DNA from: a virus
UHGV virus genome: UHGV-1358942
Strand: one strand, 5' to 3'
Length of the DNA stretch: 27,572 nucleotides
How positions within the stretch are numbered: position 1 is the first letter of the stretch; every line of letters starts with the position of its first letter. Position numbers and translations under genes: made by a program. Positions 25,899 to 26,193 of the stretch are shown piece by piece. Under the pieces are notes generated by a model. It ran no database searches. It saw only the letters and a list, made by a program, of their open reading frames with translations, and had not been told where the DNA came from.

Positions 25899-26193
25899 GT
25901 GTACCAAATTGCGTACCAAACTAAAATCACAAATCATGAAACCCTTGTTCATGGCGGTTCTCAGGGGTGTTGCGCGTAATCGTGAAAGAGGAAGGTAGGT
26001 TGTTTATCTGTGTCTGTCATTGTCTAGCATTGTCCACTGTAGTTAATTAACTATCTGTTATAACTCGAAAAACAACCCTTTTTTAACCTGAGTATGTCTA
26101 CGAACGTCAAATATAGTTGTTTACTGTGCGCTGTTGTCCATGTGATATTGTGTACCAGATGTGTACCAAACTATTATTTCTGAGCGTACCAAA
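25899..26193. repeat. Putative attP region: five arm-type direct repeats G(T/C)GTACCA(A/G)A in two clusters flanking a ~230 bp candidate core
   Basis: Copies at 25899-25908, 25911-25920, 26150-26159, 26161-26170 and 26184-26193, same orientation, the last ending 8 bp before the int start. Confidence 0.6.

Follow-up and report, generated by a model that had tools for sequence, protein, structure and literature searches.

A probable complete attP of type 2851, with five putative arm-type sites, beside the integrase gene of a mosaic P22-like phage genome

The viral DNA considered here, UHGV virus genome UHGV-1358942 (27,572 nucleotides, referred to below as the window), carries a gene for a tyrosine integrase, int, that is preceded by two clusters of a short direct repeat. 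This arrangement raises the question of whether the segment at 25899-26193 is a phage attachment site (attP) complete with the arm-type sites that an integrase would bind on either side of a crossover core and, if so, into which host gene the phage inserts. The comparisons presented below indicate that the segment is probably a complete and intact attP of the lambda type, belonging to the module known as 'type 2851', and that its repeats are very probably the arm-type sites of the integrase (Int), arranged two plus three about the core, a reading of Int binding that is drawn from sequence comparison.

Repeats, core and host target

A sequence-only reading of the window had described five direct copies of a 10-mer in two clusters, and every factual statement in that description was confirmed. 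A pattern search of the 27.6-kb window with GYGTACCARA returned five exact matches, all on the plus strand, against an expectation of 0.12 from 100 dinucleotide-preserving shuffles, none of which reached five; permitting up to one mismatch added just three further matches, scattered elsewhere in the window. The same five-copy family was recovered by a repeat finder, with start-to-start spacings of 12, 239, 11 and 23. The int-distal arm bears P1 (GTGTACCAAA; 25899-25908, plus strand) and P2 (GCGTACCAAA; 25911-25920, plus strand), each located by both the pattern search and the repeat finder, and the int-proximal arm bears P'1 (GTGTACCAGA; 26150-26159), P'2 (GTGTACCAAA; 26161-26170) and P'3 (GCGTACCAAA; 26184-26193), all on the plus strand and located by the pattern search, the last of them ending 8 bp upstream of the int ATG at 26202. 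P2 lies 54 bp and P'1 162 bp from the core, with a spacing of 12 bp between P1 and P2 and spacings of 11 and 23 among P'1-3.

The core that had been expected between the two clusters was found at 25975-25987 (plus strand) as CGTAATCGTGAAA, a 13-bp identity with the bacterial site attB, on the combined evidence of record annotations, a published core and an alignment of attP, attB, attL and attR made here. The same module is present in the records of phages mEp234, HK544, HK140, Sf101, E212 and EC.P3 and of the Shiga toxin (Stx) phages 2851 and 1717, where the core is annotated as a 'duplication due to insertion' in Stx phage 1717 and as attP ('attP type 2851') in mEp234, and a 13-bp core of type 2851 has been published for Sf101/2851 (PMC4159516). 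The search of bacterial genomes for attB that the sequence-only reading had proposed leads to the sbcB gene of Escherichia coli K-12 MG1655, in which the core 13-mer occupies codons 13-17. At the attL of phage 1717, host sbcB lies to the left of the core and phage DNA to the right, and the reverse order is seen at the attR of UPEC132. The core CGTAATCGTGAAA is intact in the attL of both 1717 and UPEC132, and the UPEC132 attR has its first base changed (TGTAATCGTGAAA); a T at this position represents a phage variant, found in UPEC132 attR and in the relative designated L009, and because of it the stretch common to all sequences is 12 bp. Core columns are 0.88 identical over 13 diverged relatives, whose prophage junctions fall in sbcB, and the junctions map to 25975-25987, inside the interval 25900-26200 to which the core had been assigned beforehand. 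The phage of this window is predicted from these alignments to insert at the core in the sbcB gene of an E. coli or Shigella host. The active-site motif conserved in exonuclease I presumably falls among the core codons, and its presence there would account for the high conservation of the target. A tRNA search over the whole window returned none, which indicates that the target of this phage is not a tRNA, and Rfam models, applied at their gathering thresholds, matched no part of the window.

To the right of the core, the minus strand at 25988-26022 provides a replacement 5' end for sbcB, with an ATG at 26022-26020 and the encoded sequence MTDTDKQPTFL, as revealed by translation of the attL fusion. 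The replacement consists of the ATG and 11 codons and, after integration, takes the place of the first 12 codons of sbcB in frame. The fusion translates as MTDTDKQPTFLFHDYETFG... compared with MMNDGKQQSTFLFHDYETFG... for native sbcB, and the sbcB product of a lysogen has the N-terminus MTDTDKQPTFL instead of MMNDGKQQSTFL. In UPEC132, which holds a prophage remnant, the full-length sbcB of the RefSeq annotation begins at the phage-supplied ATG, and the diverged attP of the relative L036 also keeps an open frame, GTG-KNESNQPTFLFHDYE, as read from alignments. Lysogeny leaves sbcB intact, in other words, by a swap of its N-terminus.

The window had been taken beforehand for an unintegrated phage genome, and a comparison with 5426 complete E. 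coli genomes supports this view. Although 1147 of these genomes match the region 25236-26300, none holds at least 80% of it contiguously, as phage genomes do, and the E. coli matches break at query positions 740-769, which correspond to the core. In the window, the P arm, core, P' arm and int are contiguous, with a left flank that is the right end of a P22-like map and a right flank formed by the gene xis, and the same continuous order is seen in the isolated phages Sf101, E212 and EC.P3. The phage form of the site, circular or packaged, is supported by these observations. A junction between tandem prophages at sbcB, as opposed to the attP of a free phage genome, would be very improbable: three O157:H7 chromosomes do have a contiguous P arm, core, P' arm and int, but these are three among the 40 best-ranked of 1148 matching records, no record covers at least 80% of the query, the left flank in the window is the phage's own P22-like right end (tailspike and O-antigen acyltransferase) in the order seen in E212, EC.P3 and Sf101, and host sequence is absent from the window. 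In O157:H7 MB9-1 (L006 3140-3450; also H32 and H33), the attP-like site stands behind nleG7 and tail-fibre genes of another prophage, having been recreated at a junction of tandem or nested prophages.

The repeats as arm-type sites of the integrase

The int gene (26202-27380, plus strand; identified as an open reading frame (ORF) with Pfam matches) encodes a 392-aa tyrosine integrase whose N-terminus forms an arm-binding domain. Pfam assigns residues 4-85 to Arm-DNA-bind_3 (PF13356; E 8e-18) and residues 204-366 to Phage_integrase (PF00589), and a PDB search matched the N-terminus to the CP4-like integrase N-domain structures 3jtz and 3ju0 and found the full-length protein to resemble the lambda Int structures 1z1b and 5j0n. 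Int is 99-100% identical to the integrases of the Sf101, HK544 and HK140 type and shares 57% identity over 391 aa with the Int of phage Phi24B.

A scan of IMG/VR with Int gave 79 loci at 20-100% identity, from which about 20 non-redundant relatives with upstream sequence, at about 53-100% Int identity, formed the set in which the footprint of the repeats was followed. Every such relative, down to about 53% Int identity, bears the triplet at -52, -41 and -18 from the start codon, and the GTAC of the triplet repeats is invariant while the flanks drift. The sequence-only reading had named a lack of conservation in related phages as the observation that would speak against it, and the repeats are instead kept over this entire range. 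An alignment of 13 sequences from the sbcB-targeting clade gives column identities of 0.72 for P'1, 0.79 for P'2 and 0.88 for P'3, as compared to 0.46 in the stretch separating P'2 from P'3 and 0.57 in the spacer 26047-26095. The distal pair, P1 and P2, is kept with the same 12-bp spacing and at the same distance in Sf101, mEp234, HK140 and the attR of UPEC132. Further afield, the counterpart of P1 is ATGTACAAAA in L036 and GTGTACATAA in both Phi24B and the relative L083, while that of P2 is GTGTACATAA in L036, GGGTACGGAT in L083 and GGGTACTAAT in Phi24B. The L036 locus (Int 73% identical, attP intact) has its doublet at -302/-290, versus -303/-291 in the window, and its P' sites read GCGTACAAAG, TGGTACAGAA and GCGTACAGAA; both of its arms have shifted together, being GTACA-type where the window has GTACC-type repeats. 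No phage relative of L036 was present in the phage collection searched. The argW-clade members L083 and Phi24B likewise combine a distal doublet spaced by 12 bp with GTACA-type P' sites. Relatives at 59-94% Int identity represent attL junctions in sbcB orthologues and the clade at 53-57% adjoins argW, and since the same layout stands beside both targets, the repeats follow int and not the target.

Across the relatives, Int residue 39 (window 26316-26318) is Q, R or L where the repeats are GTACC-type and T, N, S or A where they are GTACA-type. This residue could be a specificity contact for position 7 of the repeat, although the pattern is confounded by phylogeny.

Experiments on Phi24B, the Int, Xis and attP of which have been studied in two papers (Fogg 2011, PMC3064807; Mohaisen 2020, PMC7581858), bear directly on the int-proximal sites. 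The published Phi24B primers (PMC7581858) were remapped here onto HM208303. The construct attP427, comprising 216 bp of left arm, 24 bp of core and 187 bp of right arm, contains all five repeats and recombines, and this functional fragment stops one base past the P'3 counterpart. No recombination was obtained with attP350 (171 + 24 + 155 bp), which keeps P1, P2 and P'1 and loses P'2 and P'3, or with attP237 (132 + 24 + 81 bp), which keeps P1 and P2. The truncations fit a need for the distal P' sites, and the two-plus-three map offers a reason why the Phi24B attP must exceed 350 bp. The reverse primer of attP350 is listed in top-strand orientation, and the primer itself is the P'1 repeat (PMC7581858). 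One of the Phi24B papers remarks that little is known beyond the core, and arm-type sites are named in neither (PMC3064807, PMC7581858). Searchable literature yielded no description of the arm-type sites of an sbcB-type attP, the available records annotating the core or a coarse 'putative attP', and a 'prophage-in-prophage' paper contains nothing on sbcB.

The proposal that arm-type sites flank a core is strongly supported by the arm-binding domain of Int, by a footprint that tracks int and by the Phi24B truncations. Several points weigh against it. The co-variation of repeats and int cannot separate Int from the co-inherited excisionase Xis as the binder; the inactive attP350 is also 45 bp shorter on its other arm; the arm lengths given for attP350 in the supplement (187/139) conflict with the primers of the same study (171/155) (PMC7581858); and no consensus site for the integration host factor (IHF) lies between the arms and the core. 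The first of these points favours an alternative in which the repeats are operators, at which Xis, in the capacity of recombination directionality factor (RDF), or a host factor would control int and perhaps a divergent sbcB promoter, and are not arm sites at all. Such a role would suit the position of the int-proximal cluster on the promoter, and the RDF of prophage KplE1 also represses intS (PMC2951348). Nevertheless, copies of the motif flank the core at a separation of about 250 bp, in the two-plus-three layout typical of Int arm sites, when RDF sites usually lie on one arm and phased GTYCR pentamers are better candidates for that role; the arm-binding domain of Int requires a target; and in Phi24B the loss of P'2 and P'3 goes with a loss of integration in an assay in which only Int was supplied. 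The operator explanation is thus distinctly improbable. The notion that the repeats are non-functional, as leftovers of local duplication or a chance cluster, could appeal to their shortness (10 bp) and to the A/T-richness of one end, but it is scarcely credible given the expectation of 0.12 copies and the retention of both position and GTAC to 53% Int identity despite divergence of the flanks.

With the five repeats read as arm-type sites, the N-terminal domain of Int would bind all five, and bridging between arms and core would fold attP into a recombination complex in the manner of lambda Int, with strand exchange expected to occur within the 13-bp core CGTAATCGTGAAA (25975-25987). After integration, phage DNA to the right of the core would give sbcB its start codon and presumably a promoter, so that sbcB would remain intact. 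Int held on P'1-3 could also reduce the transcription of int, and xis would be transcribed convergently with it, from the early-left direction.

Promoter and candidate control sites of the P' arm

The orientation of int, away from the core, places its promoter in the P' arm, where GTCCATGTGATATTG (26136-26150) is the most conserved stretch outside the repeats. The promoter region is assigned to 26120-26172 (plus strand) from conservation and from homology to Phi24B, for which the start was mapped by rapid amplification of cDNA ends (RACE), and two candidate placements arise within it. One has a weak -35 element (TTTACT, 26120-25), an extended -10 element (TGtGATATT, 26141-49) and a start near 26156, inside P'1. 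The other follows Phi24B, in which a discarded 1245-bp ORF began at GTG 161, 75 bp upstream of the present TTG, and the 5'-RACE end of int was placed 46 bp downstream of GTG 161, at about 207. The Phi24B int start sits between P'2 (193-202) and P'3 (217-226), which implies a -35 element TTGCTA and a -10 element overlapping P'2; the equivalent placement in the window has a -35 element GTGATA at 26142-47, a -10 element inside P'2 and a start near 26175. In either placement the P' sites cover the -10 element or the first transcribed bases, and the overlap of the repeats with the int promoter, which the sequence-only reading had supposed, is borne out by this geometry and by the RACE-mapped start of Phi24B. 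Less favourable to the assignment, a sigma-70 consensus scan of 25236-26300 gave no match upstream of int and flagged neither placement, and the two placements differ by about 20 bp; in view of the missing consensus match, the position of the promoter is tentative, being drawn from conservation and from the RACE-mapped start of Phi24B.

The same geometry invites the idea that Int represses its own gene. The IntS protein of KplE1 represses a promoter that overlaps attL (PMC2951348), and P4 Int, as cited in the same paper, binds close to the point where int transcription begins and reduces the expression of the gene (PMC2951348). The int gene of Phi24B is reported to be constitutive in lysogens and not under CI control (PMC3064807, PMC7581858), and its expression is 2.6-fold and 7.5-fold higher in double and triple lysogens, a more than proportional rise with prophage copy number that argues against tight repression. 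Autorepression of int in the window is plausible by analogy with KplE1 and P4, if somewhat doubtful. The 8 bp between P'3 and the int ATG (26194-26201) are without a Shine-Dalgarno sequence and, in the Phi24B clade, int starts at TTG, with AGGA located inside P'3; together, these features suggest that the translation or expression of int is kept low.

Candidate control sites also lie between the core and the int-proximal repeats. Five pentamers of the form GTYNN (GTTTA, GTCTG, GTCTA, GTCCA and GTTAA) are phased at 10 bp over 26002-26046 (plus strand), and three further phased pentamers (GTCTA, GTCAA and GTTGT) occupy 26096-26120 (plus strand), just upstream of the promoter region. The pattern GTY-N7-GTY-N7-GTY is found seven times in the window against 1.47 expected, with four of the seven falling within 26002-26118. 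Relatives have GTTCR or GTCCR at the pentamer positions, and the first two pentamers overlap the coding sequence of the replacement sbcB 5' end. The attL of KplE1 possesses two blocks of TorI sites (GTTCG, GATCG, GTCCG), where a block of three abuts the intS -35 element (PMC2951348). By this parallel, the phased pentamers of the window are candidate Xis (RDF) or DNA-bending sites.

A search for the IHF consensus WATCAANNNNTTR with up to one mismatch found none in 25921-26149, between the arms and the core, and the sole local match lies inside P'2. This absence agrees with the finding that Phi24B Int works independently of IHF, and IHF sites are not a strict class-defining feature.

The presumed RDF is encoded by xis (27361-27552, minus strand), a 63-aa AlpA/HTH_17-like ORF recognized by weak Pfam matches to AlpA and HTH_17. 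It is convergent with int, with a 20-bp overlap at the int 3' end, and its product is 47% identical to Phi24B Xis, the directionality factor of that phage (PMC3064807). A PDB search with the window Xis returned nothing better than E=0.27. TorI was rejected as a homologue because the comparison was not significant (E=1.1), and IntS was rejected as a close relative of the window Int at only 22% identity. An interpretation of the clade at 57% identity as KplE1-like was likewise discarded, this clade being that of Phi24B and Stx2-86.

Related systems and genome context

Comparison with known systems places the site firmly among the type 2851 phages (2851, 1717, Sf101, mEp234, HK544 and HK140), with which the core, the five repeats and the arrangement of int and xis are identical. 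The window differs from them in its mosaic P22-like carrier, with its own tailspike and AT3/SGNH genes, and its attP region is 91-96% identical to theirs; no locus retrieved for comparison has an exact copy of the attP found here. Phi24B shares the inverted int with its own promoter, convergent with xis, the two-plus-three array of GTAC-centred repeats at the same distances, and the provision of the 5' end of the target gene by the phage. It differs in its target (argW, not sbcB), in its GTACA-type as opposed to GTACC-type motif and in its TTG as opposed to ATG start, and the minimal attP of 350-427 bp, the IHF-independence, the RACE-mapped start and the constitutive int are experimental findings for Phi24B only. 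The 24-bp crossover site of Phi24B is the first 24 nt of argW, and in the clade of Phi24B and Stx2-86 (Int 53-57%) the phage supplies the tRNA 5' end and upstream region with the same doublet-plus-triplet layout.

The likeness to KplE1 (CPS-53) and HK620 is one of regulation: attL lies over the integrase promoter, P' sites fall between the -10 element and the ATG, the RDF is transcribed separately (PMC2951348), and blocks of pentamers phased at 10 bp are present, one of them near the -35 element. However, IntS is only 22% identical, its arm motif is TAAA-containing and its target is the 3' end of argW; repression by Int and RDF has been demonstrated in KplE1 (PMC2951348), and for the window we infer it. 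The regulatory geometry is thus KplE1/P4-like, but the integrase is not a member of the IntS subfamily. With P4 the window shares the P4-type N-terminal arm-binding domain (PF13356) of its Int. P4 integrates at a tRNA-Leu gene. The attP of lambda similarly pairs a two-domain Int with two-plus-three arm sites that flank a core, but differs in the orientation and control of int, whereas the window is without IHF consensus sites and has a far longer P' arm (162 bp from core to P'1).

A broader reading of the Phi24B/2851 family would see in it a fixed attP architecture, comprising a 12-bp doublet, a core, about 160 bp and a triplet on the promoter, that was built to replace the 5' end and promoter of the target, with the P' arm of ~180 bp serving as a divergent control region. 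The 5' end replaced would be codons 1-12 of sbcB or nucleotides 1-24 of argW, in contrast to the 3' end replaced by most integrases, and Int and Xis on the P' arm would set the expression of int and, in the lysogen, of the rebuilt host gene. If true, the level of exonuclease I or tRNA-Arg(CCU) would be tied to the state of the prophage, but this reading is an unlikely one.

The attP, core and target of this module are already known or annotated, and searchable literature defines just the core and a minimal attP length for the Phi24B/2851 integrase family. What appears to be new are the five arm sites and their conservation, the fit to the Phi24B truncations, the candidate sites for the RDF and the way in which the sbcB N-terminus is replaced in frame; beyond such details, the site is an ordinary lambda-type attP. 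The resulting map of five putative arm sites, core, candidate RDF sites and promoter applies to an integrase family through which Shiga-toxin phages and phages that convert the O antigen enter sbcB and argW.

The window as a whole represents the late part of a mosaic phage genome of P22-like (Lederbergvirus) type, with best matches to CUS-3, E212, Kapi1, Sf101 and HK620 at 93-96% identity across roughly half of the sequence. Its gene order runs from the tailspike gene (21168-23381, with a Head_binding domain) through minus-strand SGNH and AT3 acyltransferase ORFs to the repeats and then int. Two adjacent minus-strand ORFs, at 23407-24120 and 24141-25235, in different frames and 20 bp apart, separately encode the SGNH domain (237 aa) and the AT3 acyltransferase domain (364 aa). 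They may represent a split or frameshifted O-antigen acetyltransferase, as Pfam describes its SGNH family as joined to AT3 domains.

The left boundary of the module retains traces of its history. A frameshifted remnant of a umuD/humD-like gene (S24 peptidase), intact in HK140, extends over about 25700-25888 (plus strand), its stop located 10 bp before P1. The 78-aa ORF at 25694-25930 (minus strand), which overlaps both distal repeats and has a counterpart annotated as hypothetical in Sf101, has no Pfam match, runs antisense to this remnant and is probably spurious. Further left, an integrase gene of the IntS/HK620 type has left its final ~20 codons (...YDKCREMMQWWEDWLDEKVE*) at 25653-25716 (minus strand), and 25236-25713 matches the region from the O-antigen genes to intS in HF4s, N7 and an E. 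coli argW prophage. On the basis of this fossil integrase 3' end and the argW-prophage-like sequence on the left, an HK620-like ancestor appears to have exchanged an argW-type module for the type 2851 module. Two strong hairpins (25599-25631 and 25645-25668, plus strand; folding z-score -4.8) separate the acyltransferase gene from the integrase fossil. A T-run follows the second, and both are likely terminators inherited with the older module. Just upstream of these hairpins, the direct repeat TGAGACAAA occurs at 25580 and 25591.

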